64,000 nt of DNA, taken from NCBI GenBank assembly GCA_965206105.1, contig OZ242201.1, positions 588,852 through 652,851 on the forward strand, in the 5' to 3' direction. This document shows, one piece after another, positions 627 to 58,048 of this stretch. The notes below the pieces were generated by a model, which searched no databases, was not told where the DNA came from, and saw only the letters and a program-made list of their open reading frames with translations. A program made the translations under genes and the position numbers. How positions within the stretch are numbered: position 1 is the stretch's first letter; every line of letters starts with the position of its first letter. This DNA is from Longimicrobiales bacterium (GTDB lineage Bacteria; Gemmatimonadota; Gemmatimonadetes; Longimicrobiales; Gaopeijiaceae).

Positions 627-1673
627 CTAACTCGCCGTCCCCCTCACCACCACCGTCACCTCCACATCCGCGTACAACCCGCCATCATCCGCCCGCCCCC
701 GCAGCAGATACGTCCCCGGCCTGTCGAAGGTCACGTCAACCGTCCACCGCCCGTCCTCGGGCAGCGCCGGCGGCACCCACAGCGGCGCCCATGGCGAATT
801 CGCTCCGGCACGCGTGTCCTCCCACCCCTTGATCTGCGGCGGATCGAAGGTGACGGCGCCCGCGAGGCCGGGGTCGTTCGCGCCCACCTCTTCGGCGGCG
901 GCCACCTGCCGGTCCACGCCCCCGCCCCCTTCCCCGCGGTACAGGAACCACGACATGAAGAGGCCGTTCACCTTCTGCACGGTGATCCGGGACGGGGGCC
1001 TCAGCTGCCTGCTGCTGAGGGTCGGCGGCGCGTTCCAGATCGAGTCGGCGCGGGCGGAGTCTTCCGCTGTTTCCGGTGGGTCCGGCGGAGAAGGGCGGCG
1101 CGATCGCAGCAGGCCATCGTCCTCGACGAGCACGCTGATCGTCAGCGGGCGGCCCACGGTGGTCTGCAGCTCGTTCGGCCCTTCGAGGCTGATCGTCGGG
1201 GGCTGGTTGCCACGAATCCGCGCATCACTGGAGCCCGCCCCGAGTGCGCCCGTCTCGGACATGATCACCGTGTTGTCGACGACGTAGTCCGGCCTAAGCG
1301 TCGCGTAGGCGCGTTCGGTGACTCCGTTCGTCGTCAGCGTCCACACCAGCTCCTTGTCCCCCCAATCGGCTGGCACGCGCACCTCGAAGACGAAGCGGTT
1401 GCGGCGCGGCAGGAAGTGGGTTGGCTGCCCGCGGTCCGCGGGCCCCGGCGAGAACCCGTTTTCCTCGCCGACCGGCACATCGAGCTCCTCGCTCCAGTTC
1501 CGGTTCATGTAGCCGAAGAGGAAGCTGAAGGTGCCGTCCTCGTTCGGCACCCAACCCTCGAAGGCGGGAGCGACGTTCTGGCCACGCTGGTAGGTCTGGG
1601 CGGCGGCGTCCTGGAGGCAGACGGCGCTGGCCGCCAAAAGCAGAACCGCGAGCCGGGTCTTCACTCCGCGCAT
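627..1673 (-). CDS. exported protein of unknown function, partner of the cytochrome c/Cu-monooxygenase-like gene; paralog of 20408..21298
   Basis: Lies inside ORF 627..1841. The ATG at 1673 gives a signal peptide (MRGVKTRLAVLLLAASAVCLQDAAAQ) and sits 4 nt after the stop of 1678..3327. Shares blocks with 20408..21298 (FEGW..N.DGTF..SFG, QPTHF..R.R, VWT(L/I)T.NG). Confidence 0.7.
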   Translation of the reverse strand: MRGVKTRLAVLLLAASAVCLQDAAAQTYQRGQNVAPAFEGWVPNEDGTFSFLFGYMNRNWSEELDVPVGEENGFSPGPADRGQPTHFLPRRNRFVFEVRVPADWGDKELVWTLTTNGVTERAYATLRPDYVVDNTVIMSETGALGAGSSDARIRGNQPPTISLEGPNELQTTVGRPLTISVLVEDDGLLRSRRPSPPDPPETAEDSARADSIWNAPPTLSSRQLRPPSRITVQKVNGLFMSWFLYRGEGGGGVDRQVAAAEEVGANDPGLAGAVTFDPPQIKGWEDTRAGANSPWAPLWVPPALPEDGRWTVDVTFDRPGTYLLRGRADDGGLYADVEVTVVVRGTAS

Positions 1674-1677
1674 TGGG

Positions 1678-3327
1678 CTACCGGTTGCCTCGGTTGGCAT
1701 CGCTGCCCCGGCCAGCACCGTTGCCCTGGTCAGCATCGTTGCCTCGACCCGGCCCATCACCCGCCCCGCGCCCGTTGCCCGACCCGTTCCCGTTCCCGCT
1801 GCGATCTGCCGATCCCGCTCCACCCCCCTGCGCCCCGTCATCCGCCCAATACTCAGGATTCCCGTTCGCCGGGATCACCATGCAGAGCGGGCACCCGACC
1901 ACATGATCGTTCGGGCCCAGCGCGAGCTTCGCGCGCCGCCTCGCCATCTCCTCCACGAACTGCTCGTCGGTGAGTTCGACCCGCATCCCGAGGTCGATGA
2001 ACATGTTCGCCACCGAGCGGTTCCCCGAGCCCTGCCAGTTGCGGGTGTCCGGCACGTTGCGGTTCGCGTCCGACGTGTCCATGTAGCCGATGATGTGCAG
2101 GATGGTCCCCTTCGGCAGCAGCGGCTGGTGGTCCTGCGCGTAGGTGTAGCCGCGGACCCAGTTGTGATCGTAGCCGACGCAGTTGATCGTCTCGACGTTG
2201 AAGCCCCAGATCGCCTCGAGGCACATGCGCATCCCGGGCGCGTGCAGGTGGGGCTCGAAGGTGACGATCTTGGTGTGCTGGTTCAGGACCTGGTAGGCGT
2301 GCAGCTCCTGCCCCGCCTCGCCGGCGCGGATGTCGATGTCGCTGCCGTTGCCGAGTCCGAAGGAAGTCCGCCGGTATTTCGGCTCGTAGTCGGGGGGATG
2401 GAAGCGGAAGCCGATCTCCAGGTGGGCGCGGGTGTCGCGGCCGTTGGAGTGCAGGTGAAGCGAGTTGGAGACGATGGACGAGCCCGCGCGCAGGAGGCGT
2501 CCGGCGTCCTGGTCGAAGATGTCGGGTTCGCGGCCGACTTCGTGGACGGGCCATGTCACGACGCTGGACCGGGTCCGGGTGCCGTCCTCCAGGGTCTCGG
2601 CCGCCTTGTACGTGCTCCAGATCATGTGATGCACGACGAACCGGCCGCCGACGGTGTGGCGGCCTTCGTGTCCGCCGTCCGCGGTCCGTCCGACGTCGTT
2701 CACCTCGCGGATCTCGACCGACTTGACGTAGCGGTCCTCCTCCAGACCCGTCGGGATGGGCTCGATGTCGCCCCACCAGTCGGGCACGTCGCTCTCGACC
2801 AGTACCTCGGGCAGCTTCACGATCAGGTCCGGTTCGCCCGCGACCCACACCACGTCGTCGTCGAATTCGAGGGGCGGCGGCAGGTCGGCGGGATCGCCCT
2901 CGGGGGTGCCCGCGCGCCACCAGCGCGCCAGCGCGTCGATCTCCCAGTCCTGGAGCGACATGTCGTCCTTGAAGTGCTGGATCCCGATGTCCTTCTCGAC
3001 GTACCAGGGCGGCATGGCCCCGGCGCGGTCCCGGATCCCGGTGCGGCGGACGACCTGGCTCGCGTACTCCTTCACCTCGTCGAACTCGACCAGCGACATC
3101 GGCGCCACGCCGCCATCGCGGTGGCACCGCACGCAGGAGCGCTGCAGGATCGGCGCGATGTCGCGGCTGAAGGTGACTTCGTTCTGGGCGGCGGTGCCGT
3201 TGGCGGGGCCGTTGGTTTGAGCAGTGAGGGCGGGTGCGGAGAGGGCCACGCCGGCAATCCCCGCAAGGGCGAAGGCTCCTGTCAACGAGGGAGAATTCTG
3301 GTCAGCTTCGCAATCGACATTCTGCAC
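1678..3327 (-). CDS. cytochrome c domain fused to PHM/DBH-like copper monooxygenase-like domain; paralog of 19029..20408
   Basis: Signal peptide, then a CxxCH heme motif (CVRCH) with downstream MPPW. His/Met pattern follows: VHHM, LHLH, PHLHAPGM, ANMF. Gly/Asn/Arg low-complexity tail. Confidence 0.75.
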   Translation of the reverse strand: MQNVDCEADQNSPSLTGAFALAGIAGVALSAPALTAQTNGPANGTAAQNEVTFSRDIAPILQRSCVRCHRDGGVAPMSLVEFDEVKEYASQVVRRTGIRDRAGAMPPWYVEKDIGIQHFKDDMSLQDWEIDALARWWRAGTPEGDPADLPPPLEFDDDVVWVAGEPDLIVKLPEVLVESDVPDWWGDIEPIPTGLEEDRYVKSVEIREVNDVGRTADGGHEGRHTVGGRFVVHHMIWSTYKAAETLEDGTRTRSSVVTWPVHEVGREPDIFDQDAGRLLRAGSSIVSNSLHLHSNGRDTRAHLEIGFRFHPPDYEPKYRRTSFGLGNGSDIDIRAGEAGQELHAYQVLNQHTKIVTFEPHLHAPGMRMCLEAIWGFNVETINCVGYDHNWVRGYTYAQDHQPLLPKGTILHIIGYMDTSDANRNVPDTRNWQGSGNRSVANMFIDLGMRVELTDEQFVEEMARRRAKLALGPNDHVVGCPLCMVIPANGNPEYWADDGAQGGGAGSADRSGNGNGSGNGRGAGDGPGRGNDADQGNGAGRGSDANRGNR

Positions 3328-16894: not shown

Positions 16895-18766
16895 TCACCC
16901 CGGGCTGTTCGGGCGCCGCCCTCCCTCTCTGCCTTGCCCGGGGCCGCGGCCCCGCCCGCCTCGCGATTCCCGCCACTCCCGCATCTGCTGCTCGATCTGC
17001 TGCTGGATCTCCCGGAATCGGGGGTGCCGCCGCAACGGGTCCCACACGGGACTGGTCGAGAGGAAGGCCAGCGCGGGATCCCTCGCCTCGACGGCCGCCT
17101 CAAGGTGGTCGAGCGCGCCTCCGCGATCGCCAAGGTGGAGGGCCACGGTCGCGGCCTCGACCTGCGACACGCGGTTGCCCCGCTCCTGGCGTGCCGTGAG
17201 ATGGTCGCGCCGCCACTGCCAATAGGTTTGGGGATTGCCGGGGTCGAAGGTCGCGTGCAGCGCTTCGATTGCAGTCCCGGCGGCCGCCGCATCGCGCTGC
17301 GTGGCCCGGATCCACTCTTCGCGGATCCCCACCGCGGCCTCGTAGTCACCCTGGTGGAGGTGGAGATCCTCCAGAGCTGCCCAGGCCGGACTCATCCTCG
17401 GGTTTTCCGTGAGTTCCGTCCGCAGTACGACATCCGCGCTGTCGTACTGGCCCTGTTCCCGATACCGGTACGCCCGCATGAGCGGGGACGGTTCACCGAA
17501 CTGGCGGCCGATTCTGGTCCCCTGCATCAGCCTGCGCCGCGTGAGCGAGTCCGTGTCCGGCCCGGCCTCCGCGACCCCTGCATCGACATCCCCTTCGGCC
17601 AGAGCAAGCAAGCCCGCACCCCAGCCCAGCCGCGGACCCACCTGTCTGGCTGCCTCCTCCACCGCCAACACCTCATCCTCGACACCTCCAAGCCCCCTGG
17701 CCCGCTGCAGGTGCGCGACCGCCATCGCCAGCGTGTCCTCCGGAATCGCCCTCCCCTCCATACGGGCGCCCAGCACGGCGCCGAACAACAAGACGCTGGG
17801 GAGCGCGAAGGTGGAGTCCTCTCCGATCGCCTGATCGAAGAGGGCCACGGCCTCATCCCACCTCTCGGCCTCCAGTGCCTGCCGGCCCTCCAGGTTCAGC
17901 CGGTACGCCTTCGGATCGATCTGCGCGAACTGTTGCGGGACCGCGACGCCGTCCAGCTCCCCCGCCACCGTCCTCGCGATGTCGACGGCAACCTCCGTCT
18001 GGAGGCGAAGAATGTCCCTCATCTCGCGCTGGTAGGTCATCGAGCGCAGGTGCGTGTCCGTGGGCGCGTCCAGGAGCTGCACCGAGATCCGCACGCTGTC
18101 GCTGTCCGCCGCCATCGCGACCGACCCCGTCACGATCCGCTGCACCCCCAGCTCCGCCGCGATCTCGGGGAGGAGCTTGTCCGTGGTGCGGTACCGCTCC
18201 ACCGAGGTTCGCGACACGACCCTGAGCGTGGTGAGTTCGCTCAGCAGCGTGATGATCTCCTCGTGCAGCTGGCGCGCGAAGAGGTCTTCACCGCCGGTGA
18301 GGTCCGCCAGGGGAAGGACCGCGATCGCGGTGACGGTCGTGTCGATGTCCGCGATCGCCAGCACCTCGGCGCCCAGTCCCTCCGCCGGCGGCGCCGCTCC
18401 CTCACCCCCCGCCCGCGCATTTCGCTGGAACCACAACGCTCCCACCCCGGCCACGATCAGCGTGACCACCAGAAGCGCGACCCGGGGCGCCAGGGTCACC
18501 CGCGTGACGCCCTGGTCGCTCGTTCGTTCGAGCCCGTGGGGGGTCAGGTCATACACCCAGGCGCAGGCCAGCACCACCGGCAGGCCCAGGAGCAGAACGA
18601 CGACCAGCGACTGCATCACCCAGTTCGGAGCATCGAAAGCCGGAAGAATGATCTCCCCAAGCTGCAGGAGCACGAATGCCGCGACCACGTAAAAGCCCCC
18701 GCTGCGGACCACACGGCGGCGTTCCACTTCCTTCCAGAACGCGCTCAGGCCCGTTTTTCGCTTCAT
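16895..18766 (-). CDS. membrane-anchored TPR protein with TolB-N-like domain
   Basis: N-terminal FWKEVERRRVVR plus TM helices. Then AVLPLADL..., LRVVSRTS and a TPR-like C-terminal half. Confidence 0.65.
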   Translation of the reverse strand: MKRKTGLSAFWKEVERRRVVRSGGFYVVAAFVLLQLGEIILPAFDAPNWVMQSLVVVLLLGLPVVLACAWVYDLTPHGLERTSDQGVTRVTLAPRVALLVVTLIVAGVGALWFQRNARAGGEGAAPPAEGLGAEVLAIADIDTTVTAIAVLPLADLTGGEDLFARQLHEEIITLLSELTTLRVVSRTSVERYRTTDKLLPEIAAELGVQRIVTGSVAMAADSDSVRISVQLLDAPTDTHLRSMTYQREMRDILRLQTEVAVDIARTVAGELDGVAVPQQFAQIDPKAYRLNLEGRQALEAERWDEAVALFDQAIGEDSTFALPSVLLFGAVLGARMEGRAIPEDTLAMAVAHLQRARGLGGVEDEVLAVEEAARQVGPRLGWGAGLLALAEGDVDAGVAEAGPDTDSLTRRRLMQGTRIGRQFGEPSPLMRAYRYREQGQYDSADVVLRTELTENPRMSPAWAALEDLHLHQGDYEAAVGIREEWIRATQRDAAAAGTAIEALHATFDPGNPQTYWQWRRDHLTARQERGNRVSQVEAATVALHLGDRGGALDHLEAAVEARDPALAFLSTSPVWDPLRRHPRFREIQQQIEQQMREWRESRGGRGRGPGQGREGGRRPNSPG

Positions 18767-19028
18767 TGGTCAGGCTCCCTGCCGGTTTCGATGATCCCTC
18801 GACCTATATGGTGGACCCTTGAGGCCTCGATTTTGCTAGGGGACCTCGCCCGTCGCCCGCTTGCCGCCGCACCCTGTCCCCGGTACTGTACGCCCGCCGG
18901 ACGCTCACGCAAGCTTGCCTCGCCGTCCGGTGCCGCCGCATCATTATGGCGGGGACCGGGGCCGTACCTTGCCCGGCACGGGGCTCGCATCGGCCCCCGC
19001 GCGACCGCTCTTGAAGGAGGATCTGCTC

Positions 19029-20408
19029 ATGCGCCGCATGCATGACCGCCCGTACCGTCCGTCCAGCCCCTTCACCGCCCCGGCGCTATCCATCGCGGCG
19101 GCGGCCATCCTGGCGCTGGCGACCACCCCTCCCGTCGCGGCCCAGCAGTCCGCGGGCAACGGCGAATCGCACGAAGCCGGCGTGACCTTCAGCAAGGACG
19201 TCGCTCCCATCCTCCAGGCCAACTGCCAGATCTGCCACCGGCCAGCTTCCGTCGGCCCGATGTCGCTCCTCACCTACCAGGAGGTCCGCCGGTATGCGTC
19301 GCGGGCGCGGGATCTGGTCTCGAAGCGCCTGATGCCGCCCTTCCACCTCGACACCGGGGTCGGCATCCAGGAGATCAAGGATGACTGGCGGCTGAGCGAC
19401 GAGGAGATCGAGACCTTCGTGGCGTGGGTGGACGCGGGGGCGCCGGAAGGGGATCCGGCCGACCTGCCCCCGCCGGTCGAGTGGCCGAACAAGCAGATGT
19501 GGCAGCTCGAGGACATCCTCGGCCCGCCGGATCACGTGATCAGGTCGACGCCGTTCGACGTGCCCGCCGAGGGTGGCGACACCTGGTGGCGTCCGCGCGT
19601 GCCTACGGGGCTCACCGAAGACAGGTGGGTGATGGCGGCCGAGACGCGTCCCTCCTTCCCGGCCGGCCGCCAGGTCGTCCATCACGCGATCCCGCGCCTC
19701 CTGCGGCTCACCGAGGAGGGCGAGTACCGGCGCATCCAGAGCCTGTCCGAGTACGCCATGGGCAAGGTCGGCGAGATCGTGCCGCGCGACGCGGGAAGGC
19801 TCCTCAAGGCAACCGACCTGATCGAGTGGGATGCCCACTACTATCCCATGGGATACGAAGTGACCGGCGACCAGTTGGAGCTGGGGATCTGGTTCCACGA
19901 GGATGGCTATGAGCCGGAGTTCCGGCAGGACCTGCGCCTCTACCCGCTCCGGGGCGACATCGCGCTCGCGCCCGGGGGGACCGCAATGACACAGGGCTTC
20001 CACCGCTGGGACCACCCGGTGCGCATCGATAGCTACCAGCCGCACGGACATGTGCACCTGCACGCGATGTCCGTGCAGGCGGTGTATCCCAATGGCGATG
20101 TCCGACTCATCAGCATGGTCACGGACTTCGACGCCCGCTGGCATCACAGTTACATCTACGAGGACGACGTGGCGCCGCTCCTCCCGACGGGAACGGTCGT
20201 CGTCCTGACCGGGTGGTACGACAACACCGCCGAGAACGAGCTCACGCCGGACCCCGAGATCTGGTATGCGCGGGGCTCGCGGACGATGGACGAGATGTCG
20301 CATGCGTGGATCGCGGTCACCCACCTCACTGAGGACGGCTACCAACGGCTGGTCGAAGAGCGGGAGAAGAAGCTCGCGAGCGGCGAAAACGGGGGCGACG
20401 GCAACTGA
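19029..20408 (+). CDS. cytochrome c domain fused to PHM/DBH-like copper monooxygenase-like domain
   Basis: The ATG is preceded by GAAGGAGGA. Signal peptide, CQICH heme motif, LMPPF. His/Met pattern VHHA, AHYY, HVHLHAMS, DEMSHAW. Confidence 0.8.
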   Translation: MRRMHDRPYRPSSPFTAPALSIAAAAILALATTPPVAAQQSAGNGESHEAGVTFSKDVAPILQANCQICHRPASVGPMSLLTYQEVRRYASRARDLVSKRLMPPFHLDTGVGIQEIKDDWRLSDEEIETFVAWVDAGAPEGDPADLPPPVEWPNKQMWQLEDILGPPDHVIRSTPFDVPAEGGDTWWRPRVPTGLTEDRWVMAAETRPSFPAGRQVVHHAIPRLLRLTEEGEYRRIQSLSEYAMGKVGEIVPRDAGRLLKATDLIEWDAHYYPMGYEVTGDQLELGIWFHEDGYEPEFRQDLRLYPLRGDIALAPGGTAMTQGFHRWDHPVRIDSYQPHGHVHLHAMSVQAVYPNGDVRLISMVTDFDARWHHSYIYEDDVAPLLPTGTVVVLTGWYDNTAENELTPDPEIWYARGSRTMDEMSHAWIAVTHLTEDGYQRLVEEREKKLASGENGGDGN

Positions 20409-21298
20409 TGCGGGGCGGATGGGGGGTGCGGGATCCGGGCGCGGCGCGGGTGCTGGGCGCGGCAATGATCCTGCTGGCGGTGTCGGCGGCTGCGGGCGGA
20501 CCGCTGGAGGCGCAGCAGCGCCGGCTGCCGCTCGCCCCGATCCTGCCCGAGGGGGACGAAGTGGCCCCGTTCTTCGAAGGCTGGTACCGCAACGACGACG
20601 GCACCTTCACGCTCTCGTTCGGGTTCTTCAACCTGAACAGCCGGCAGATCCTGGACATCCCGATCGGGCCGGAGAACTTCATCGAGCCGGCCGAGTTCGA
20701 CGGGATGCAGCCCACGCACTTCCCGGTGCGGCCGCGCCGGGACCGGGGCGTCTTTCATGTCACGGTGCCCGCTTCGTACGGGGACGGGGAGCAGACGGTG
20801 GTGTGGACGATCACGGCGAACGGGTACACGAACGCGACTCCGGGGCGGGTGGGGGTCCCGGCGCTGCAGCTGGACTACGGGCCGCGGGCGATGGGATCGG
20901 TGTCGCCGGTGGTGCGGTTCAGCCCCGACGGGGAGGCAGGCCAGCACATTCAGGGCGTGTGGGGGGAGCCGCGCACCGCGAAGGTGGGCGAGCCGCTTAC
21001 GCTGACGCTGTGGACGGAGGAGGTTTCGGTGCGCGCGCCCGAGGACCTGGTCAACGTCTCCGTCGACGTGGGGGTGAGCTGGTTCAAGCACCAGGGGCCC
21101 GCCGGGCGGGTCTCGGTGGACCCAAGGCGCATCACGGTGGAAGGCGGCACCGGCGAGGCCACGGCGACCCTGGTCTTCAGCGAGCCGGGGGAGTACGTGC
21201 TGCGGGCGCGCGTCGACAACTGGTCCGCGAACGACAGCACCGGCGGCGACCAATGCTGCTGGACGAACGCGTATGTGCGGGTGACGGTCATGCGCTAG
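20408..21298 (+). CDS. exported protein of unknown function, partner gene; paralog of 627..1673
   Basis: ATGA overlap with the upstream stop (TGATG). Signal peptide. Conserved blocks shared with 627..1673. Confidence 0.75.
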   Translation: MRGGWGVRDPGAARVLGAAMILLAVSAAAGGPLEAQQRRLPLAPILPEGDEVAPFFEGWYRNDDGTFTLSFGFFNLNSRQILDIPIGPENFIEPAEFDGMQPTHFPVRPRRDRGVFHVTVPASYGDGEQTVVWTITANGYTNATPGRVGVPALQLDYGPRAMGSVSPVVRFSPDGEAGQHIQGVWGEPRTAKVGEPLTLTLWTEEVSVRAPEDLVNVSVDVGVSWFKHQGPAGRVSVDPRRITVEGGTGEATATLVFSEPGEYVLRARVDNWSANDSTGGDQCCWTNAYVRVTVMR

Positions 21299-21414: not shown

Positions 21415-22614
21415 ATGGACACGAATCGGCGGGATTTTCTGAAGACGACGGTTGCCGCGGGCGGGGCTGTTGCGGCGGGGGTCACTCCTGTGGGGCTCGC
21501 GGGGTTGGCCGGGGGTGGTGGCGTGGGAGGCGCGTCGACGGCGGAGGGCGCGACGCCGCAGCCCAGCGCCGAGGCACAGACCAGGGCCGCGCAGTCGCTC
21601 CGCATCCTGATCCTGGGCGGGACCGGGTTCATCGGTCCGCACCAGGTCGAGTATGCGCTGTCGCGCGGGCACGAAGTCACGCTCTTCAACCGCGGCCGCA
21701 CCAACTCGCACCTCTTCCCCGGAGTCGAGAAGCTGGTCGGCGACCGCGAGAGCGACCTCTCCGCGCTGGAGGGGCGGAGCTGGGACGCGGTGGTGGACAA
21801 TTCGGCGACCAACGCGCCGCACTGGGTGGAGGCGAGCGCGAACCTGCTCAGGGACTCGTGCGAGCGCTACATCTTCGTCTCGACGCGGTCGGTCTACGCC
21901 GACACCAGCCGGGTGCCGATGTCGATCGAGGCGCCGGTCTGGACGTACGAGAACGCCGGCGTGGAGCGCGGCGCGGATCGGCTCCCCTACGGTCTCGGCA
22001 AGGCAATCTCCGAGCAGATCGCCCGGGACGTATTCGGCGAGGACCGCACCCTGGTCTTCCGGCCCGGCCTCATCATCGGCCCGGGCGACAACACGGACCG
22101 CTTCACCTACTGGCCCGTGCGCATCCACCGCGGCGGCGAGGTCCTCTCCCCCGGCGACGGCACCGACCCGGTGCAGATCATCGACGTGCGCGATTTCGGC
22201 GACTGGCTGGTGCGCATGGCCGAGGCGGGCGAGCACGGCACCTACAACGTCGTCGGCCCGGCGACGCCCCGTCCCATGAGCGAGATGCTCTACGGCATCC
22301 GCGCCGTGACCACCGCCGAGACCTCCTTCACCTGGGTGGATGCGGACTTCCTCCGCGAGGCGGGGCTGCGCCCCTACGGGGAGATGCCGGTGTGGCGCCC
22401 CGCCCGCGACGGGTTCGAGGGCTTCGCGCGCTTCGACCTCACGCCGGAAGTCGAGAAGGGCCTCACCTTCCGCTCGCTCGCCGACACGACCGCGGCGACG
22501 CTGGAGTTCCATTTCTCGCGTCCGGAGGAGCGGCAGGCCCGGGTGTTCAACAGGCTGAGCCCCGAGCGGGAGGCCGAGGTGCTGGCGGCGTGGCATGCGT
22601 CGCGGCGGGGGTAA
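21415..22614 (+). CDS. Tat-exported NAD(P)-dependent epimerase/dehydratase (SDR) family protein
   Basis: Twin-arginine motif NRRDFLK and Rossmann ILILGGTGFIG. Confidence 0.85.
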   Translation: MDTNRRDFLKTTVAAGGAVAAGVTPVGLAGLAGGGGVGGASTAEGATPQPSAEAQTRAAQSLRILILGGTGFIGPHQVEYALSRGHEVTLFNRGRTNSHLFPGVEKLVGDRESDLSALEGRSWDAVVDNSATNAPHWVEASANLLRDSCERYIFVSTRSVYADTSRVPMSIEAPVWTYENAGVERGADRLPYGLGKAISEQIARDVFGEDRTLVFRPGLIIGPGDNTDRFTYWPVRIHRGGEVLSPGDGTDPVQIIDVRDFGDWLVRMAEAGEHGTYNVVGPATPRPMSEMLYGIRAVTTAETSFTWVDADFLREAGLRPYGEMPVWRPARDGFEGFARFDLTPEVEKGLTFRSLADTTAATLEFHFSRPEERQARVFNRLSPEREAEVLAAWHASRRG

Positions 22615-50412: not shown

Positions 50413-52293
50413 CTACATCTCCGGAGCAAGCTCCCGGTGCCAGAACCCATCCCTCCGGGCAAGCACCAACTCCAGGCGGCCCTCCATCAGATCCGCCAGA
50501 AGTCGCGGTGAGAGCTCGACCGCGCCCACCGTCTCCACCTCCCCGGGACCACCCAGCCGCAGCACCACCACCCCCTCCCCCTCCTCCGCGACGCGGCGCA
50601 GCACGGACCCGTACACGTCGGCCGGCTCCGCATCGAGAAAGGCGATCCGGTAGGAGAGCTGCCCGCGCGGGAGGTCGACCTCCATCTCGACCGACGCGAT
50701 GGCGGTGCCCCTCTGCACGGCTGCGTCGGCAGCATCGCTGTCAGCGGCAACGGCTCCGTCCTTGAGCGCAATCCGCACCGGCGGGGGAACCGCCCCATCC
50801 ACGAGCGGCGGCGTCCGCAGCGGAGCCCGCCGCCTGGGCGCCGCGGACTCGAACGCGAACGCCATCCCGACCAGGCGGGCATCGTCCAGCGTCCGGCCCA
50901 GCAGCTCCAGCCCGACAGGCAGTCCGCTCTCCGTGAACCCGGCCGGGATGGAGAGCGCGGGCAATCCCGAATGCGCGCTCAGGGAGCAGGTCGCGCCGGC
51001 CGGAGCCGCGCCGATCAGCGCGGTTTCCTGCCGCATGGTCGGGTAGGCGAGCGCGTCGAGATCCTCCCGGTCCATGAGGCCGGTCACCGCCGCGGCGAGG
51101 GCGCGCCGGCGCTCCAGGGTCTCGGCCAGCTCTGGGGTCTCCCGCTCCTCGCGCGCGTTGCGGCGCCGGAAGGTGCGGTCCAGCGCCTCATGATGCAGTC
51201 CCATCTCGATGATCTCGCCCAGCGAGATGACGGGCGCGCCCGGGATCCCGGCCAGGTAGTCCGCCAGATCGAACTTGAAGTCGAAGTCGATGAGCCCCGT
51301 GCCCGACAGCACGCCATCCGGCAGCGACACGTCCACCACGGTCGCCCCCAGCCCCTCCATCTCCTCCAGCGCACCGCGGATCACCCGCACCACGCTCCCG
51401 GCGCTCCCCTCCTCGATGTCCAGCGCCCCAATCCGCGCGCCCTCCAGCGCACCCGCATCGAGCGCGTCGCGGAAGGCCGGCACCTCCCGCCCCTCCAGGA
51501 TCGCGGTCGCGGGGTCGGCCGAATCCATCCCCACCGTCGCGTCCAGCGCAATGGCCAGATCGGTCACCGTGCGCGCCAGCGGACCGCCCGTGTCCTGCGA
51601 GTGCGAGAGCGGCAGAATCCCGTCGATGCTCGACAGGCCCTTCGTGGGACGCAGCCCGAAGAGGTTGTGCACCGCGGACGGAATCCGGATCGACCCGCAG
51701 GTATCGGTGCCCCAACCCACCGCCGCGAAGCTGGCCGCGACGGCCGCGCCCGTTCCCCCCGAGCTGCCGCCCGGATTGCGGGCCGGATCATACGGATTCC
51801 GCGTCTGCCCGCCCAGCGAACTGATCGTGGTGATGCCCGCCGCCAGTTCGTGGAGATTCGTCTTCCCCACGATGACAGCACCCGCCTCCCGCAGCCGGGC
51901 CACCTGAAAGGCATCGTCAGGCGGCTGGAGCCCCGCCAGCGCCAGACTCGACCCCGTCGTGGGCATCCACGAGACATCGTAGTTGTCCTTCATCAGCACC
52001 GGGATTCCGTGCAACGGCCCGCGCACCGTGCCCGCCGCGCGCTCGGCATCGAGCGAGTCCGCCTGCGCCCGCGCCCGCGGATTGAGGCGGATGATGGTGT
52101 TGAGCGCCGGGCCCGCCCGGTCGTAGGCCCGGATTCGCTCAAGGTACAGGTCGACGAGTTGAGCCGAGGTGACGCGGCCCTCCAGCATCGCGGCCTGCAG
52201 CTCGACAATGGACGCCTCGGCCACTTCGAAGCCGGCATCGTCCGGCGGCGCGCAGGCCAGGAACAGCAGGCAGGCGAGGAGTGCGTGCTTCAC
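50413..52293 (-). CDS. amidase (amidase-signature family) lipoprotein with ~150-aa C-terminal extension
   Basis: GTG start in a GTGA overlap with the upstream stop. Lipobox LFLAC. AS motifs GGSSGG and GTDTCGSIRIPS. Confidence 0.85.
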   Translation of the reverse strand: MKHALLACLLFLACAPPDDAGFEVAEASIVELQAAMLEGRVTSAQLVDLYLERIRAYDRAGPALNTIIRLNPRARAQADSLDAERAAGTVRGPLHGIPVLMKDNYDVSWMPTTGSSLALAGLQPPDDAFQVARLREAGAVIVGKTNLHELAAGITTISSLGGQTRNPYDPARNPGGSSGGTGAAVAASFAAVGWGTDTCGSIRIPSAVHNLFGLRPTKGLSSIDGILPLSHSQDTGGPLARTVTDLAIALDATVGMDSADPATAILEGREVPAFRDALDAGALEGARIGALDIEEGSAGSVVRVIRGALEEMEGLGATVVDVSLPDGVLSGTGLIDFDFKFDLADYLAGIPGAPVISLGEIIEMGLHHEALDRTFRRRNAREERETPELAETLERRRALAAAVTGLMDREDLDALAYPTMRQETALIGAAPAGATCSLSAHSGLPALSIPAGFTESGLPVGLELLGRTLDDARLVGMAFAFESAAPRRRAPLRTPPLVDGAVPPPVRIALKDGAVAADSDAADAAVQRGTAIASVEMEVDLPRGQLSYRIAFLDAEPADVYGSVLRRVAEEGEGVVVLRLGGPGEVETVGAVELSPRLLADLMEGRLELVLARRDGFWHRELAPEM

Positions 52294-53318
52294 AGCGTCA
52301 GCGCCACCGCGCCGATAAATGCCGGAATGAGCATACTCGAATACAGAATGAGCGCGAGGAGTCCCTTGATCACGGTCCATATCCATCCGTCCCGGTAGAA
52401 GTGCCGCATGGCCGCCAGCGTGTAGTACAGCACCCACAACGATGTGGCAAGCCAGACCACGTTGGCGACGACGCCCGCGGGGAGCAGGAGGGGAATGGCG
52501 GACGCGAGCAGAGCGAACGTCTGAAGATGAATCTGGAAGACCAGGTGCTCGACGAAGTACCGCTTCTTTCTGAATTGGATGATTGCGAACACGAGGGCCT
52601 GGAAGGGCAGCAGGCAAAGGTAGGAGACCGACAGGTTCCCAATGACCCGTTCCATGAAGAACACGGGATCATGCACAAAGTCGATCATCAGGCTCCAGAG
52701 TGCCTTCTCCAGCCAGCCCGTTTCGCCCGGGGCCCTCGGTTCCATGTCCCCGGACAAGCTGAGGATCATTCCAACGCCGGCAGCTTCGCCGGGCCGGCTC
52801 AGGATATCGTCCAGCTTCTGCCGGTACCGCGGTTCCAATCGCGTCTTGAGGGCGTCGACCTGCGCCTGGTCGGGAGCGAGATCGTCAAGCACGGCGTCGG
52901 TCCCGTCGCCCACACCTGCACTATCTGCCGCCAGGTTTCCGCGGGACACATCGAACGACACCGATGGGTCGATGGTCCCCGTGTCCACGCCGCCGAAGAA
53001 TGCCCGCGCGAACGCGAAGAAGTAGAGGATCGTCGCGAACAGGTACATCCGCACCGGCGACATGTAGTTCGCACGGTGGTTGCGCGAGAACTCGGCGGAC
53101 AGACGCCCCGGGCGGATCAGCTGCTTCAGGGTCTGCAGCAGCTTCGAGTCCACTTCGAGGGTCTCCCGCAGGAGGTCGCCCATGACGGACCACGCGGAGC
53201 GGATGTAGTTCCGGTCGTTCTGCCCGCAGTAGCCGCAGAAGCGTTCCCCGCGCGGGCGGCCGCAGTTGAGGCAGGCGGGGCCGGGATCGGGGGTGGATTC
53301 GGGCGCGGATTCAGACAT
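52290..53318 (-). CDS. DUF3667-like zinc-ribbon membrane protein (paralog 2)
   Basis: CLNCG...FCGYCGQ zinc ribbon, then the RSAWSVMGDL...RPGRLSAEFSRNHRANYMSP block and TM helices. Confidence 0.8.
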   Translation of the reverse strand: MSESAPESTPDPGPACLNCGRPRGERFCGYCGQNDRNYIRSAWSVMGDLLRETLEVDSKLLQTLKQLIRPGRLSAEFSRNHRANYMSPVRMYLFATILYFFAFARAFFGGVDTGTIDPSVSFDVSRGNLAADSAGVGDGTDAVLDDLAPDQAQVDALKTRLEPRYRQKLDDILSRPGEAAGVGMILSLSGDMEPRAPGETGWLEKALWSLMIDFVHDPVFFMERVIGNLSVSYLCLLPFQALVFAIIQFRKKRYFVEHLVFQIHLQTFALLASAIPLLLPAGVVANVVWLATSLWVLYYTLAAMRHFYRDGWIWTVIKGLLALILYSSMLIPAFIGAVALTL

Positions 53319-53321
53319 GCG

Positions 53322-54374
53322 TCACCCTGTCAGGAACAACACGACCAGGAAGCCCGGGAGCAACACCCAGAAATAGAGCCATTCCACCACGAAGCCCTTG
53401 ATCAGGGTCCGGATCCAGCCGTCCCCGTAGAAGCGGCGCAGGGCGATCAGGTAGTACACCTCCGCAGCGAGAATCAGGAACAGGCGTGCCAGGCCTCCAA
53501 ACGTGCCCCCAGGCATCACCAGCGCTGTCCCGAGGGCCAGGAAGATGAAGGTCTGCACGTGAATGGCGAAGACCAGGTGCTCGATCAGGTACCGTCGCTT
53601 TCTCAAGTAGCAGACTTTCAGGGCAAGAGCCAGGAACGGCAGCAGGAAGAACATTGCGATCGGCATGTTGCCGATCATCCGCTGGAGGAAGACCTCGGGA
53701 TCGTGCAGGAGGTCGACCATGCTGGTCACGAACGCCCTCATAAGGAACCCGGGGGGATCCGTCCTTAGCGCTGCGACGGGAGCCACCGAGTCCTCCGGAC
53801 TCACCAGATCCGGTCCAAACGGATCGCGATAGGCCACCAGCCGGACCAGCATCGGGAGGAGATCCCGCGACGTACTCGCCCCTGGTCGGGCGAGGATGTC
53901 TTCCACTCTCTGGCCCTGTTCCGGCCGCAACGCCGTCATCAGAGCAGCGAGTTCGGCCTCGCTCACGATCTGTGATGGATAGACCTCCCCAGGGTCCGAT
54001 TCGATCATCACGGCCGAATCGTCGTAACCGGTGTTCGGCAACTTCCACGACAACACGAGGAAGAATACGAGGCTCGTGAAGAGATACAGCCGAATCGGCG
54101 ACATGTACCGGGCCCGCCGGTTGCGTGAGAATTCGGCCGACAGACTCCCGGGCTTGAAGAGGAGGAGCTTCAGGGTCTGAAGGATCCTCGCGTCCACCTC
54201 GAAGGCCTCGCGGTTCAGTTCCCAGAGCATGGGAAGCAGCGACCGCTTGTAGTTCCGGTCGTTCTGGCCGCACCGGGCGCAATAGCGGCCAGAGCGGGCG
54301 TCGCCGCAGTTGAGGCAGGAGGCGGGGGAGGACGGCTCGGGTCCGGCGGGATTCCGATTCGGTGAGTCGGGCAC
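53322..54374 (-). CDS. DUF3667-like zinc-ribbon membrane protein (paralog 1)
   Basis: CLNCG...YCARCGQ, then KPGSLSAEFSRNRRARYMSP and TM helices. GTG start. Confidence 0.8.
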   Translation of the reverse strand: MPDSPNRNPAGPEPSSPASCLNCGDARSGRYCARCGQNDRNYKRSLLPMLWELNREAFEVDARILQTLKLLLFKPGSLSAEFSRNRRARYMSPIRLYLFTSLVFFLVLSWKLPNTGYDDSAVMIESDPGEVYPSQIVSEAELAALMTALRPEQGQRVEDILARPGASTSRDLLPMLVRLVAYRDPFGPDLVSPEDSVAPVAALRTDPPGFLMRAFVTSMVDLLHDPEVFLQRMIGNMPIAMFFLLPFLALALKVCYLRKRRYLIEHLVFAIHVQTFIFLALGTALVMPGGTFGGLARLFLILAAEVYYLIALRRFYGDGWIRTLIKGFVVEWLYFWVLLPGFLVVLFLTG

Positions 54375-54380
54375 GTTGGT

Positions 54381-54575
54381 TCAACCGATAGTCACTAGCA
54401 GTACAATCAGGAGAGCGGGCAACAGAACGATGGAATAGAGTACACCGGCCCCGATGCAGTGGCCAGCGCCCACAATGGGGTTGCGGCGCCGACCAATCCA
54501 GATCGTTGCGGACCTGCGTGGGGAGGATGGCTGCAAGCTTCCCCGCCTTGCGGCTACCATCCCCGCGCGGTCCAT
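54381..54575 (-). CDS. possible small membrane protein
   Basis: C-terminal hydrophobic helix GAGVLYSIVLLPALLIVLLVTIG. The stop lies 6 nt before the downstream GTG. The locus is lower in GC than its surroundings. Start uncertain. Confidence 0.3.
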   Translation of the reverse strand: MDRAGMVAARRGSLQPSSPRRSATIWIGRRRNPIVGAGHCIGAGVLYSIVLLPALLIVLLVTIG

Positions 54576-54640
54576 TTCCACCCCACGCGGCACCCCCTCA
54601 CCCCCCCGCCGCACCCCACCCTGCGACCAAGGCCGCGCGC

Positions 54641-57600
54641 ATGCACCGCTCCACGATCCCACCGACCCGCCACCGTTCCCTCCCTGCGGCGATCCCCGCC
54701 CGCCCAGCACACCCTGCCAGCCCCCCACACCCCGCCCGCCGCCCGGCACCCCGCACCCGGCACCCCCTCGCCATCGCCGGCCTCGCCCTGTTCCTCGCGA
54801 CCGGCGCCCCGCCCCACCCCACCGCCGCCCAGACCCCCCCCACCGACGCCGACCCCGCCATCATCCACGAAGCCGCGCAGGGCCTCGCGCTGCGCGGGAT
54901 CGGCCCGGCGCTGATGGGCGGGCGCATCGCCGACATCGCGGTCCACCCCGACGACCCCACCACCTGGTACATCGCGGTCGGCTCCGGCGGCGTCTGGAAG
55001 ACCACGAACGCGGGCATTTCCTGGACGCCCGTTTTCGACGACCAACCGTCCTATTCCATCGGCGATGTCGCCATCGATCCGTCCGATCCGGACATCGTGT
55101 GGGTGGGCACGGGCGAGAACGTGAGCGGGCGGCATGTGGCCTGGGGCGACGGGGTGTACCGGAGCCGCGACGGCGGCCGCACATGGCGCCGCATGGGGCT
55201 CGCGGCCTCCGAGCACATCGGCAAGATCCTGGTGGATCCGCGGGACGGGAATGTCGTGTTCGTCGCGGCGGAGGGGCCGCTTTGGTCGACGGGCGGCGAG
55301 CGCGGGCTATACCGGACCGGGGACGGGGGCGAGACGTGGGAGGCCGTGCTGACGGTCGACGCGAACACCGGCGTCACCGACGTGGAGTTCGATCCCGTCG
55401 ACCCCGACATCATGTACGCGGCAACGTACGAGCGGCGGCGGAGCGTGTGGGCGCTGCTGGCGGGCGGCCCCGGGTCGGGGATCCACAAGTCGACGGACGG
55501 GGGGCGGACCTGGCGGCGGGTGAGCCGTGGGCTCCCGGATGCCGATATGGGAAAGATCGGGCTGGCCGTTTCGGGCGCCGACCGCAACGTGGTGTACGCG
55601 ACGATCGAGGCCGCGGCGGGCGACCGGGGCTTCTACCGCTCCACCGACCGGGGCGAGAGCTGGGAGCGCCGCAATTCCTACATCTCGGGCGGGACCGGGC
55701 CCCACTACTACCAGGAGATCGAGGCGTCGCCGCACGATGTGGACCTGGTCTACCAGATGGACGTCTTCGTGCACGTCACGCGCGATGGCGGCGCCACCTT
55801 CACCGAGCTGGGGACGGGCCGCGAGAAGCACAGCGACAATCACGCCTTCTGGATCGATCCCGCGAACGGCAGGCACCTCCTCGCCGGGACCGACGCGGGG
55901 CTCTACGAGACCTTCGACGAGGGGACGACCTGGCGGCACTTCCCGAACATGCCCGTGTCCCAGTTCTACAAGCTCGCGCTCGACAATTCCGAGCCGTTCT
56001 ACAACATCCTCGGGGGCGCACAGGACCTCGGGACGCTCCACGGGCCGTCGCGCACGATGAACCAGGAGGGCGTACGCAACCGCGACTGGTACGTGCCGCT
56101 GGGCGCCGACGGGTACGCCGCCGCCTTCGACATGGCCGATCCAGCCATTGCCTTCATCCAGACCCAGCAGGGGAATCTGCAGCGGGTCAACCTCGTCAAC
56201 CACGAACTCATCAACATCCGTCCCCAGCCGGCCCCCGGCGACCCGCCCGAGCGCTGGAACTGGGACAGCCCGGTCATCGCGAGCCCCCATGCGGAGGGCC
56301 GGATCTATTACGCGTCGCAGCGGCTGTGGCGGAGCGATGACCGGGGTGGTTCATGGCAGGCCGTGAGCGGCGATCTCACCCGCAACGACAACCGCTACGA
56401 GCTGCCGATGGCGGGACGGGTGCGCAGCATCGACGCGCTGTACGGGAACACCGCAATGTCCCTGTACTCGACCATTTCGGCGATTTCGGAGTCGCCGGTG
56501 GCGGAGGGCGTCCTCTACGTCGGGACCGATGACGGGCTGGTGCAGGTGACGGAGGACGGGGGCGAGACATGGCGCCAGGCGGCGGCGCTGCCGGGCGTGC
56601 CCGAGCGCGCGTTCATGAACGACATCAAGGCGTCGCAGCACGACGGCGCGACGGTCTTCGTGGCGCCGGACAACCACAAGGAGGGCGACTACACGCCCTA
56701 TCTCCTCGAGAGCAACGACGCCGGACGCAGCTGGCGCTCGATCGCGGGCGACCTGCCGGACGGCATCGTCATCTGGTCGGTGGAACAGGACCACGAGCGT
56801 CCCGATCTGCTATTCCTCGGCACCGAACACGGCATCTATTTCACGACGAACGGGGGCGACCACTGGGTGCTGCTGGGCAACGGCGCCCCCACGATCTCGT
56901 TCCGTGATCTGGAGATCCAGCGCCGCGACGACGACCTGGTCGGCGCGACCTTCGGCCGCGGCTTCTACATCCTCGACGACTACGCGCCGCTCCGGGAGAT
57001 GGCCGCCGGCGCGCTGACCGCCGGCGCAACCCTGTTCCCCGTGCGGGACGCCTGGTGGTACGTCCCCAACACCCCGCTCCAGGCGGCCGGCCAGCCGACC
57101 CTCGGCACGACCTCGTTCGTCGCGCCCAACCCGGACTTCGGCGCCACCTTCACCTACTGGCTGGCCGAAGCGCCCGAGACGATGCGCGAGGAGCGGCGCC
57201 GCGAAGAGCGCGCGGCCGCGGGGCGCGGCGAGGACATCGCCTTCCCCGGCTACGATCGCCTCGCCGCCGAGGCCCAGGAGAGCGGGCCGCGCGTGGCGCT
57301 CCTGGTGCGGGACGCCGCGGGCAACCCCGTGCGGCGCGTCATGGGCCCCGCCCGGCGCGGCCTCCACCGCGTCACCTGGGACCTCCGCCGCCCCGCCCCC
57401 GACCCGGTCAACCTCACCACGCCGGGATTCTCGCCCCCCTGGGCGGGCCAGTCGCGCGGCCCGCTCGCGCCGCCGGGCGACTACACGGTCGAGATGGCGC
57501 TCATCACGGAGGCCGGTGTGGAGCCGCTCGGCGAGTCCCAGTCCTTCACGGTGAAACCCGTGCCCAACATCGACATGAGCACCGATTTCGTCGCCGCGAT

Positions 57601-58048
57601 GGCCTTCGCCGAGGAGACGGCCGACCTGCAGCGCCGCGCGAGGGGCGCCACCGCCGAGATCGGGCGCGCGCGCGACCGGCTCCGCCACATGCGCGCCGCC
57701 CTCGACGAGACCCCCGCAGCGGGCGCCGAGCTCTACCAGCGCCTGGAGGAGATCGACGGGCGGCTCGCCGAGGTCGCGGCCGAGCTCCAGGGCGACCCCA
57801 CGCCGGGCCGCTACAACGAGCCCACCGCCCCCTCGATCACGGGCCGCATCGGGCAGGTCGCCGGGGGGCACTGGGGTACGCGCCAGGAGCCCACCGCGAC
57901 GCAGCGCGAGAGTCTCCAGGTAGCGCGGGCCGGGTTTGAGGAGGTCGTCGTGCGGCTCAGGTCGCTGCTGGAAGACGATCTTGCCGGGCTGGAGCGGGAC
58001 ATGGAGGCGGCGGGGGCGCCGTGGACGCCGGGGCGGCGGATCGGGTGA
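54641..58048 (+). CDS. BNR/Asp-box repeat (sortilin/VPS10-like) exported protein
   Basis: About ten S/T-x-D-G-G-x-T/S-W Asp-box motifs (STDGGRTW, SRDGGRTW, TGDGGETW, SNDAGRSW and others). Signal-like AIAGLALFLATGA. Confidence 0.85.
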   Translation: MHRSTIPPTRHRSLPAAIPARPAHPASPPHPARRPAPRTRHPLAIAGLALFLATGAPPHPTAAQTPPTDADPAIIHEAAQGLALRGIGPALMGGRIADIAVHPDDPTTWYIAVGSGGVWKTTNAGISWTPVFDDQPSYSIGDVAIDPSDPDIVWVGTGENVSGRHVAWGDGVYRSRDGGRTWRRMGLAASEHIGKILVDPRDGNVVFVAAEGPLWSTGGERGLYRTGDGGETWEAVLTVDANTGVTDVEFDPVDPDIMYAATYERRRSVWALLAGGPGSGIHKSTDGGRTWRRVSRGLPDADMGKIGLAVSGADRNVVYATIEAAAGDRGFYRSTDRGESWERRNSYISGGTGPHYYQEIEASPHDVDLVYQMDVFVHVTRDGGATFTELGTGREKHSDNHAFWIDPANGRHLLAGTDAGLYETFDEGTTWRHFPNMPVSQFYKLALDNSEPFYNILGGAQDLGTLHGPSRTMNQEGVRNRDWYVPLGADGYAAAFDMADPAIAFIQTQQGNLQRVNLVNHELINIRPQPAPGDPPERWNWDSPVIASPHAEGRIYYASQRLWRSDDRGGSWQAVSGDLTRNDNRYELPMAGRVRSIDALYGNTAMSLYSTISAISESPVAEGVLYVGTDDGLVQVTEDGGETWRQAAALPGVPERAFMNDIKASQHDGATVFVAPDNHKEGDYTPYLLESNDAGRSWRSIAGDLPDGIVIWSVEQDHERPDLLFLGTEHGIYFTTNGGDHWVLLGNGAPTISFRDLEIQRRDDDLVGATFGRGFYILDDYAPLREMAAGALTAGATLFPVRDAWWYVPNTPLQAAGQPTLGTTSFVAPNPDFGATFTYWLAEAPETMREERRREERAAAGRGEDIAFPGYDRLAAEAQESGPRVALLVRDAAGNPVRRVMGPARRGLHRVTWDLRRPAPDPVNLTTPGFSPPWAGQSRGPLAPPGDYTVEMALITEAGVEPLGESQSFTVKPVPNIDMSTDFVAAMAFAEETADLQRRARGATAEIGRARDRLRHMRAALDETPAAGAELYQRLEEIDGRLAEVAAELQGDPTPGRYNEPTAPSITGRIGQVAGGHWGTRQEPTATQRESLQVARAGFEEVVVRLRSLLEDDLAGLERDMEAAGAPWTPGRRIG

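Follow-up and report, generated by a model that had tools for sequence, protein, structure and literature searches.

The gene at 19029-20408 of a 64,000-nucleotide stretch of Longimicrobiales DNA (GenBank assembly GCA_965206105.1, contig OZ242201.1; the whole stretch is called the window here) encodes a protein in which a predicted c-type cytochrome domain is fused to a catalytic core of the kind found in peptidylglycine alpha-hydroxylating monooxygenase (PHM) and dopamine beta-hydroxylase (DBH), the copper enzymes of animals that produce amidated peptide hormones and noradrenaline, respectively. This fusion is supported by the predicted fold, by profile-profile alignment and by the conservation of the ligand columns. 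The enzyme gene is followed by a small partner gene, and a second, divergent enzyme-partner pair lies in the same window (Table 1). We think it probable that both gene pairs encode a periplasmic two-subunit copper monooxygenase that is reduced via its own heme. A first-pass annotation, made from the sequence alone, had already described a cytochrome c domain joined to a PHM/DBH-like fold, and the open reading frame and all motifs that it quoted are present, both in the enzyme (FSKDVAPILQANCQICH, LMPPF, VHHA, AHYY, HGHVHLHAMS and DEMSHAW) and in the paralog (CVRCH, VHHM, LHLH, PHLHAPGM and ANMF).

The assignment of the core rests on three observations. First, the predicted structure resembles the copper hydroxylases. 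The AlphaFold2 model of the enzyme, built on an alignment, has a mean pLDDT (predicted local distance difference test) of 81.3 and a pTM (predicted template modelling score) of 0.80, and the ligand-bearing segments reach pLDDT values of 82-95. When this model was compared with the PDB by Foldseek, the top 30 matches were all DBH or PHM: human DBH (4zel) is the best of them (E 1.1e-11), and 28 PHM entries (E 3e-11 to 3.2e-9, target TM about 0.55-0.65) are among them, with alignments of 285-316 columns. The next match is unrelated and separated by a gap of about 1000-fold (E 4e-6). The tail of the list holds viral double jelly-roll capsids, as expected of the clan that unites PHM and PNGase F; PNGase F itself is absent among the 50 matches listed, and there are no bacterial structures among the PDB matches.

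Second, the family can be aligned with animal PHM at the level of profiles. The rat PHM core sequence was verified against PDB 1sdw_A, genuine animal PHMs were then collected, and 26 of them were compared by hhalign with 103 diverse members of the family, taken from clusters at 50% identity (25-45% pairwise identity). The local alignment covers 240 columns (Prob 97.7%, E 1.9e-12) and the global alignment 288 columns (Prob 98.8%, E 5.8e-16). This match needed deep alignments on both sides: the shallow alignment A1 of 33 homologs, the window paralog included, gave a Prob of only 0.4% against a single PHM. In the deep comparison, the columns of the PHM ligands H107, H108, H172, H242, H244 and M314 fall on H218, H219, H270, H339, H341 and M423, and DEMC of PHM falls on DEMS.

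Third, these positions are conserved. All ten heme and copper ligand residues occur together in 101 of the 103 members, and the invariant columns of the 33-sequence alignment include C66, C69, H70, M102-P103-P104, H218, H219, H270, H339, H341 and M423. The His/Met pattern that the first-pass annotation had likened to PHM is therefore confirmed for all six ligands, which align and are each conserved in 101-103 of the 103 members. Its placement of the CuM His-x-His pair was right in part: such a pair exists, and PHLH in the paralog is correct, but in the main copy the pair is H339-G-H341, whereas H343 and H345 are variable. We thus predict two copper sites, a CuH-like site formed by H218, H219 and H270 and a CuM-like site formed by H339, H341 and M423, each of which would be occupied by the metal.

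Pfam places PHM and PNGase F in a single clan of double jelly-rolls, whose eukaryotic branch is PHM according to a paper of 2022 (PMC8812541). This kinship would be compatible with a double jelly-roll without catalytic function, similar to PNGase F or binding carbohydrate, that sits on an electron-transfer cytochrome and carries the His/Met pattern by coincidence; it would also fit that the window enzyme is unrecognised by Pfam and that CBM48/AMPK1_CBM domains occur in a few of the 80 diverse family representatives of our domain census. We give this idea almost no credence: neither PNGase F nor carbohydrate-binding-module structures are among the top 30 Foldseek matches, the profile alignment with PHM is highly significant, and all six copper ligands fall on those of PHM and are retained at low pairwise identity. 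On these grounds of Foldseek, hhalign and ligand conservation, the PNGase F-like and the chance-motif readings were both rejected.

For the N-terminal domain, the evidence supports a class I cytochrome c with a CxxCH motif for the attachment of heme, as judged from sequence. C66, C69, H70 and M102 are each kept in 103 of the 103 members. The Pfam matches are weak (Cytochrome_CBB3, Haem_bd and PccH); both enzyme copies of the window match Cytochrome_CBB3/PccH below threshold, and the score of the window enzyme against Cytochrome_CBB3, 15.3 bits, lies below the cut-off of 27. The same family is matched, weakly, by all 33 of the 33 homologs and at E<=0.01 by 56 of the 80 diverse members, and the relatives P0125 (37.1 bits) and P0137 (34.1 bits) pass the cut-off. 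A search of PDB sequences with phmmer and the 33-sequence profile returned hydrazine synthase alpha as the sole match, via the heme motif. The "PSCyt-like" context suggested by the first-pass annotation was not recovered: PSCyt1 has no match at E<=1 in the window enzyme or its paralog and is not among the families of the 33 homologs.

How might such a protein work? An N-terminus with Arg residues and then a hydrophobic segment (residues 14-38, ending PPVAA/QQ by sequence inspection) suggests that the large subunit would be exported by Sec to the periplasm, where the N-terminal domain would receive a covalent heme c that is ligated by His70 and Met102 and matured by the Ccm (cytochrome c maturation) system. 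Electrons would reach this heme from the periplasmic pool of c-type cytochromes or, in some organisms, from an adjacent pyrroloquinoline quinone (PQQ) dehydrogenase. The heme would pass them to the CuH-like site and then to the CuM-like site, where activated O2 may hydroxylate a C-H bond of a substrate other than a glycine-extended peptide. In this scheme heme c takes the place that ascorbate has as the reductant of the animal enzymes, which seems a reasonable inference from the domain composition; the direction of electron flow and the monooxygenase chemistry are likewise presumed. The electrons could also run the other way, with the dicopper domain oxidising the substrate as a dehydrogenase or oxidase and heme c handing the electrons to the respiratory chain. 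Fused c-type cytochromes are indeed often electron exits in periplasmic dehydrogenases such as the quinohemoprotein alcohol dehydrogenases. Nevertheless, we regard this reversal as unlikely, for all characterised members of the PHM/DBH fold consume electrons, the Met that is conserved in the CuM-like site is a hallmark of sites that activate O2, and the adjacent PQQ dehydrogenases donate electrons themselves and need a cytochrome c as acceptor.

The copper monooxygenase would not act alone. Its partner gene encodes a protein of a family with more than 3,000 members, all called "hypothetical" and none with a Pfam domain; the window protein likewise matched no Pfam or NCBIfam family. This conserved partner had not been remarked in the first-pass annotation. 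We examined 81 loci from reference genomes of Gemmatimonadota, Acidobacteriota, Acidimicrobiia and Gammaproteobacteria, and the partner adjoins the enzyme gene on the same strand in about 69 of them according to hidden Markov models and in 73 according to clustering. It may lie upstream or downstream, and the exceptions are mostly truncated contigs. Moreover, enzyme and partner are fused in P0129, P0133, P0128 and P0142, two of which represent clusters with 6 and 19 members; the fusions occur in the orders partner-enzyme and enzyme-partner, and once the enzyme is inserted between both partner domains. Adjacency, translational coupling and fusions together are strong evidence that the two proteins would form a physical complex. 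The AlphaFold2 model of the partner (pLDDT 63, below 50 in the N-terminal domain) is confident only for the C-terminal immunoglobulin (Ig)-like sandwich, and Foldseek returned only generic Ig-like, PapD-like and complement MG-domain matches. Since the fold matches are generic and the model is confident in part, no function was assigned to the partner; the small Ig-like protein may bind the enzyme as a structural or a substrate-presenting subunit.

The genes that accompany the pair in other genomes suggest a wider context. A PQQ dehydrogenase without a cytochrome domain of its own (PF01011, E 8e-150) adjoins the enzyme gene in 15 loci; against the NCBIfam models of the methanol/ethanol and glucose/quinate families, all its scores stay below the cut-offs. 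An NHL propeller is the neighbour in 9 loci. Partner and enzyme (in either order), PQQ dehydrogenase and NHL protein form contiguous same-strand clusters in a Gemmatimonadota metagenome-assembled genome (MAG; L031:6001-11931), in a Pseudohongiella MAG (L072:5142-11224) and in another gammaproteobacterial MAG (L080:2069-9472), and these clusters suggest a multi-step periplasmic oxidation module. The NHL protein of L031 (10666-11931, plus strand) is 33% identical over 200 residues to the PAL domain of mammalian PAM (E 2e-19). It keeps two of the three Zn-binding His motifs of PAL ("PHG/PHS") and ADRxNxRIQ, whereas His stands in the place of the catalytic Tyr and apparently Glu in that of the third His. 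With these replacements and the heterogeneity of the cluster, the idea that the NHL neighbours are true PAL orthologs is supported only in part, and we do not adopt it. Further propellers of this partly PAL-like subgroup lie at L062:11215-12462 and L070:4220-5356. The arrangement of a PHM-like gene beside a PAL-like gene recalls the bifunctional PAM of animals.

Several results speak against a copper monooxygenase of the PHM type. The first-pass annotation had pointed to the Pfam families Cu2_monooxygen and Cu2_monoox_C (PF01082 and PF03712), and neither is matched by the window enzyme or its paralog at E<=1, an outcome that, for this protein taken singly, corresponds to one half of what the annotation had named as a refutation; the NCBIfam scan of the window proteins gave no copper monooxygenase match either, and PHM was not found among the PDB sequences by phmmer or by the 33-sequence profile. 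The relatives do match: Cu2_monoox_C is hit by 32 of the 80 diverse relatives (best 8.2e-7) and, below threshold, by 7 of the 33 close homologs, and Cu2_monooxygen by 6 of the 80 (best 2.1e-5). These hits place the window enzyme in a divergent PHM/DBH branch outside the curated models. In addition, all five disulfides of PHM are missing, as the two Cys residues of the enzyme are both in the heme motif C66-Q-I-C69-H70. R240, which in PHM anchors the carboxylate of the peptidylglycine, corresponds to Q337, which varies in the family (Q/M/S/T/F), and N316 corresponds to H425, which varies as well (I/F/H/V/N); Y318 is represented by W427, a position that is mostly aromatic across the family. By the criterion of the variable R240 and N316 positions, the enzyme would be no peptidylglycine hydroxylase, and its substrate would not be a glycine-extended peptide. 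Moreover, no PQQ dehydrogenase is encoded in the 64-kb window. Finally, 17 of the 80 relatives carry an N-terminal AhpC/TSA peroxiredoxin domain, a possible hint at a chemistry of peroxide instead of O2; two of these also match the glutathione peroxidase family.

This last point bears on a reading of the protein as a copper oxidase, peroxidase or peroxygenase: the heme-fed copper would reduce O2 or H2O2, for detoxification or as a side branch of respiration, or else H2O2 would be the true co-substrate as has been proposed for lytic polysaccharide monooxygenases (LPMOs). The redoxin fusions would fit, the same set of ligands could carry peroxide chemistry, and no substrate can be named. We nonetheless judge it rather unlikely. 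Sites with a His2Met CuM and a His3 CuH are so far known from the substrate hydroxylases PHM, DBH and tyramine beta-monooxygenase (TBM); arrays of three to four paralogs and the variable positions of the PHM pocket fit a diversification of substrates better than a single role in detoxification; and the PQQ dehydrogenase and partly PAL-like NHL proteins nearby suggest that an organic product undergoes further processing.

The periplasmic copper monooxygenase that we favour would belong to a very large family. More than 5,052 relatives of the enzyme are present in the 90% clustered database, none with a precomputed Pfam domain, and when 1.84 billion representatives were searched exhaustively with a profile, 18,278 clusters (50% identity) reached E<=1e-3, while 2,901 clusters reached E<=1e-30. 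The family is found in Gemmatimonadota, Acidobacteriota, Acidimicrobiia and Gammaproteobacteria, including abundant marine and soil lineages (Longimicrobiales/Palauibacter, Vicinamibacterales and Pseudohongiella). Where the relatives have names at all, they are called "c-type cytochrome", "mono/diheme cytochrome c family protein", "redoxin" or "hypothetical". In genomes of Longimicrobiales and Pseudohongiella, three to four divergent paralogs of the enzyme stand in tandem and have one or two partner genes in common (L052:63-7332, L059:1962-8961, L071, L073, L075 and L077), and such arrays point to substrate diversification.

The textbook examples of non-coupled binuclear copper enzymes are PHM, DBH and TBM, which are regarded as eukaryotic and as dependent on ascorbate (PMC8812541, PMC12164859); a review of 2025 lists PHM, DBM and TBM only. 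In agreement with the first-pass annotation, which knew of no characterised bacterial enzyme of this architecture, searches of the openly accessible full-text literature, where absence is no proof, turned up no account of a bacterial protein that joins cytochrome c to PHM. Some of the AhpC-fused relatives are presumably tagged as PHM-like by Gene3D/SUPERFAMILY via InterPro, so that recognition at the domain level may exist for a part of the family. What appears to be new here is a built-in electron donor and a partner subunit on a known catalytic fold.

The comparison with the known systems illustrates this. The enzyme shares with PHM, the catalytic core of PAM (PDB 1PHM, 1SDW, 3MLL), the two-domain beta-sandwich (Foldseek E 3e-11, target TM about 0.6), the order of the six copper ligands and the DEM motif at the Met. 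The spacing of the ligands is HH...51...H...69...HxH...82...M, as compared to 64, 70 and 70 in PHM, and the identity is only 12-16%. In contrast to PHM, the enzyme is bacterial and predicted to be periplasmic, has a putative N-terminal heme c domain, presumably does not depend on ascorbate, and has a partner subunit that looks obligate. DBH, which we group with TBM and MOXD1 (PDB 4ZEL), also has an extra domain before the core. In DBH this is a DOMON domain, whose fold accommodates heme b in certain other proteins; in the enzyme it is a class I cytochrome c with a CxxCH motif for covalent heme. The C-terminal dimerisation domain of DBH is lacking in the enzyme, and DBH in turn has nothing that corresponds to the partner.

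A further comparison is within the family itself: proteins that combine AhpC/TSA-redoxin, cytochrome c and PHM-like domains, such as MBX3414081.1 of Pirellulales ("redoxin domain-containing protein"), are found with the A1 profile at E<1e-67, and some match Cu2_monoox_C at or below threshold. They bear an additional N-terminal peroxiredoxin/thioredoxin-fold domain and sometimes a C-terminal hydrolase, EF-hand or GAF domain, and the window enzyme is the minimal form. No characterised member with a redoxin fusion was found in literature and database look-ups. The AhpC/TSA-like domain precedes the cytochrome c domain in P0125, P0228, P0234, P0257, P0232 and P0241; the C-terminal additions vary among the long redoxin-fused relatives (EF-hands, GDSL lipase, alpha/beta hydrolase, GAF), and P0125 (1251 amino acids) apparently contains two redoxin-cytochrome-PHM-like units.

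Other systems offer analogies of function. The cytochrome domain of cellobiose dehydrogenase, together with an LPMO, may be an example of a heme domain that feeds a copper monooxygenase site, and the coupling proposed for particulate methane monooxygenase, methanol dehydrogenase and cytochrome c may illustrate how a PQQ dehydrogenase could recycle the electrons of the product. The LPMOs with their histidine brace and the membrane-bound copper monooxygenases have folds and copper sites that are unrelated to those of the enzyme, and in these systems heme and copper are on separate proteins.

It is tempting to go one step further. PHM/DBH-type dicopper monooxygenases may constitute a very large bacterial class that is wired to respiratory c-type cytochromes and built of two subunits with an Ig-like partner that had gone unrecognised, and this class may include a module with a PQQ dehydrogenase and a PAL-like protein that resembles a precursor of PHM and PAL. 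As a whole, we consider this picture tentative, and it may well turn out to be wrong in one of its parts. If it holds, the PQQ dehydrogenase of many organisms would recycle electrons from the hydroxylated product to the heme, sometimes joined by a PAL-like NHL lyase, the system could serve as a periplasmic module for C-H oxidation or N-dealkylation of environmental organic matter, and it would be a plausible prokaryotic precursor of the PHM and PAL amidation pathway of animals.

How electrons cross the gap of about 11 Å between the copper sites of PHM/DBH-type enzymes is a long-standing question. A covalently bound heme would be a built-in donor that can be addressed by spectroscopy, which makes this question directly testable, and production should be easier as the bacterial proteins have no disulfides or glycosylation requirements. 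The size of the family, the paralog arrays and the abundance of the host lineages suggest an unrecognised route of aerobic periplasmic C-H oxidation, hidden behind the current names ("cytochrome c", "redoxin", "hypothetical") and, in the case of the partner family, behind the lack of any annotation.

Table 1. Features of the two enzyme-partner gene pairs (positions in the window; residue numbers refer to the respective protein)
Feature	Position	Strand	Remarks
Paralogous partner gene	627..1673	-	Open reading frame to 1841; likely ATG at 1673, 4 nt past the enzyme stop (predicted start)
Paralogous enzyme gene	1678..3327	-	549 amino acids; full ligand set
Low-complexity tail of paralog	1681-1839	-	About 50 residues, rich in Gly/Asn/Asp/Arg
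CPLC motif of paralog	1882-1893	-	Residues 479-482; in a C-terminal extension missing from the main copy
Shine-Dalgarno sequence GAAGGAGGA	19013..19021	+	7 nt 5' of ATG 19029; read directly in the sequence
Enzyme gene	19029..20408	+	459 amino acids: signal peptide, cytochrome c domain, PHM/DBH-like dicopper core, C-terminal helix
Putative Sec-type signal peptide	19029..19142	+	Residues 1 to about 38; from hydropathy and pLDDT <50 over residues 1-49
Class I c-type cytochrome domain	19176..19448	+	Residues about 50-140; weak Cytochrome_CBB3/PccH matches, stronger in relatives
Heme c attachment motif C66-Q-I-C69-H70	19224..19238	+	Kept in 103/103
M102-P103-P104	19332..19340	+	Candidate distal heme Met ligand; M102 and P103 in 103/103
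PHM/DBH-like double beta-sandwich core	19560..20339	+	Residues 178-437, aligned to PAM residues 71-328
H218-H219	19680..19685	+	Equivalent to PHM CuH ligands H107/H108 (hhalign); 103/103 and 102/103
H270	19836..19838	+	Equivalent to PHM CuH ligand H172 (hhalign); 103/103
H339-G-H341	20043..20051	+	Equivalent to PHM CuM ligands H242/H244 (hhalign); 103/103 and 102/103
M423 (in DEMSHAW)	20295..20297	+	Equivalent to PHM CuM ligand M314 (hhalign); 101/103
TGATG stop/start overlap	20406..20410	+	Enzyme/partner; translational coupling
Partner gene	20408..21298	+	296 amino acids: signal peptide, conserved N-terminal domain (FEGWxxNxDGTF...QPTHF), C-terminal Ig-like beta-sandwich

The window has a GC content of 68%, and a gene map based on GC at third codon positions shows a clean open reading frame from 18861 to 20408 on the plus strand. 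Within this frame, the ATG at 19029 is the likely start of the enzyme gene, since GAAGGAGGA lies 7 nt upstream and M1 is in register with the starts of the homologs. A copy of the enzyme that is 99% identical is present in a Longimicrobiales (Gemmatimonadota) MAG (CBDBUB010000006.1, L003).

The two enzyme copies of the window are 33% identical (E 3e-69), and the partner at 20408-21298 is homologous to the gene that follows the paralog (likely 627-1673). The start at ATG 1673 would provide the latter protein with an MRGVKTRLAVLLLAASA signal peptide. The ligands of the paralogous enzyme are C65, C68, H69, M105, H233, H234, H291, H360, H362 and M442. Its CPLC motif might bind Cu(I) or act as a redox-active CxxC, and two more Cys residues (369 and 383) are located within its CuM-like domain.

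The other neighbours in the window (tetratricopeptide repeat (TPR) proteins, an M28 peptidase, an epimerase with a twin-arginine translocation (TAT) signal, L-PSP and giant Calx-beta proteins) give no clue to a pathway, and no convincing PAL-like gene was found in the 64 kb. The synteny with epimerase, ABC and amidohydrolase genes is confined to close relatives. Divergently from the enzyme gene, 16895-18766 (minus strand) encodes a protein of 623 amino acids that combines TPR repeats with a membrane segment at its N-terminus and is unrelated to the PQQ dehydrogenase found at the equivalent position in other phyla. Directly 3' of the partner, 21415-22614 (plus strand) encodes the protein of the NAD-dependent epimerase/dehydratase family with the TAT signal; epimerase-family genes flank the cassette in the close relative L001 too, and an NAD-epimerase fold is unusual in the periplasm. 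Giant genes encoding 1914, 2355, 1244, 412 and 2007 amino acids occupy 25298-49688 (plus strand); they are probably large surface or adhesin proteins, as the first of them contains four Calx-beta domains together with cadherin and fn3 domains. Finally, two tandem paralogous DUF3667 genes (342 and 350 amino acids; 52290-54374, minus strand) adjoin the gene of a 734-amino-acid amidase (50413-52617) and lie opposite that of a Sortilin/BNR-repeat protein of 1180 amino acids (54506-58048).

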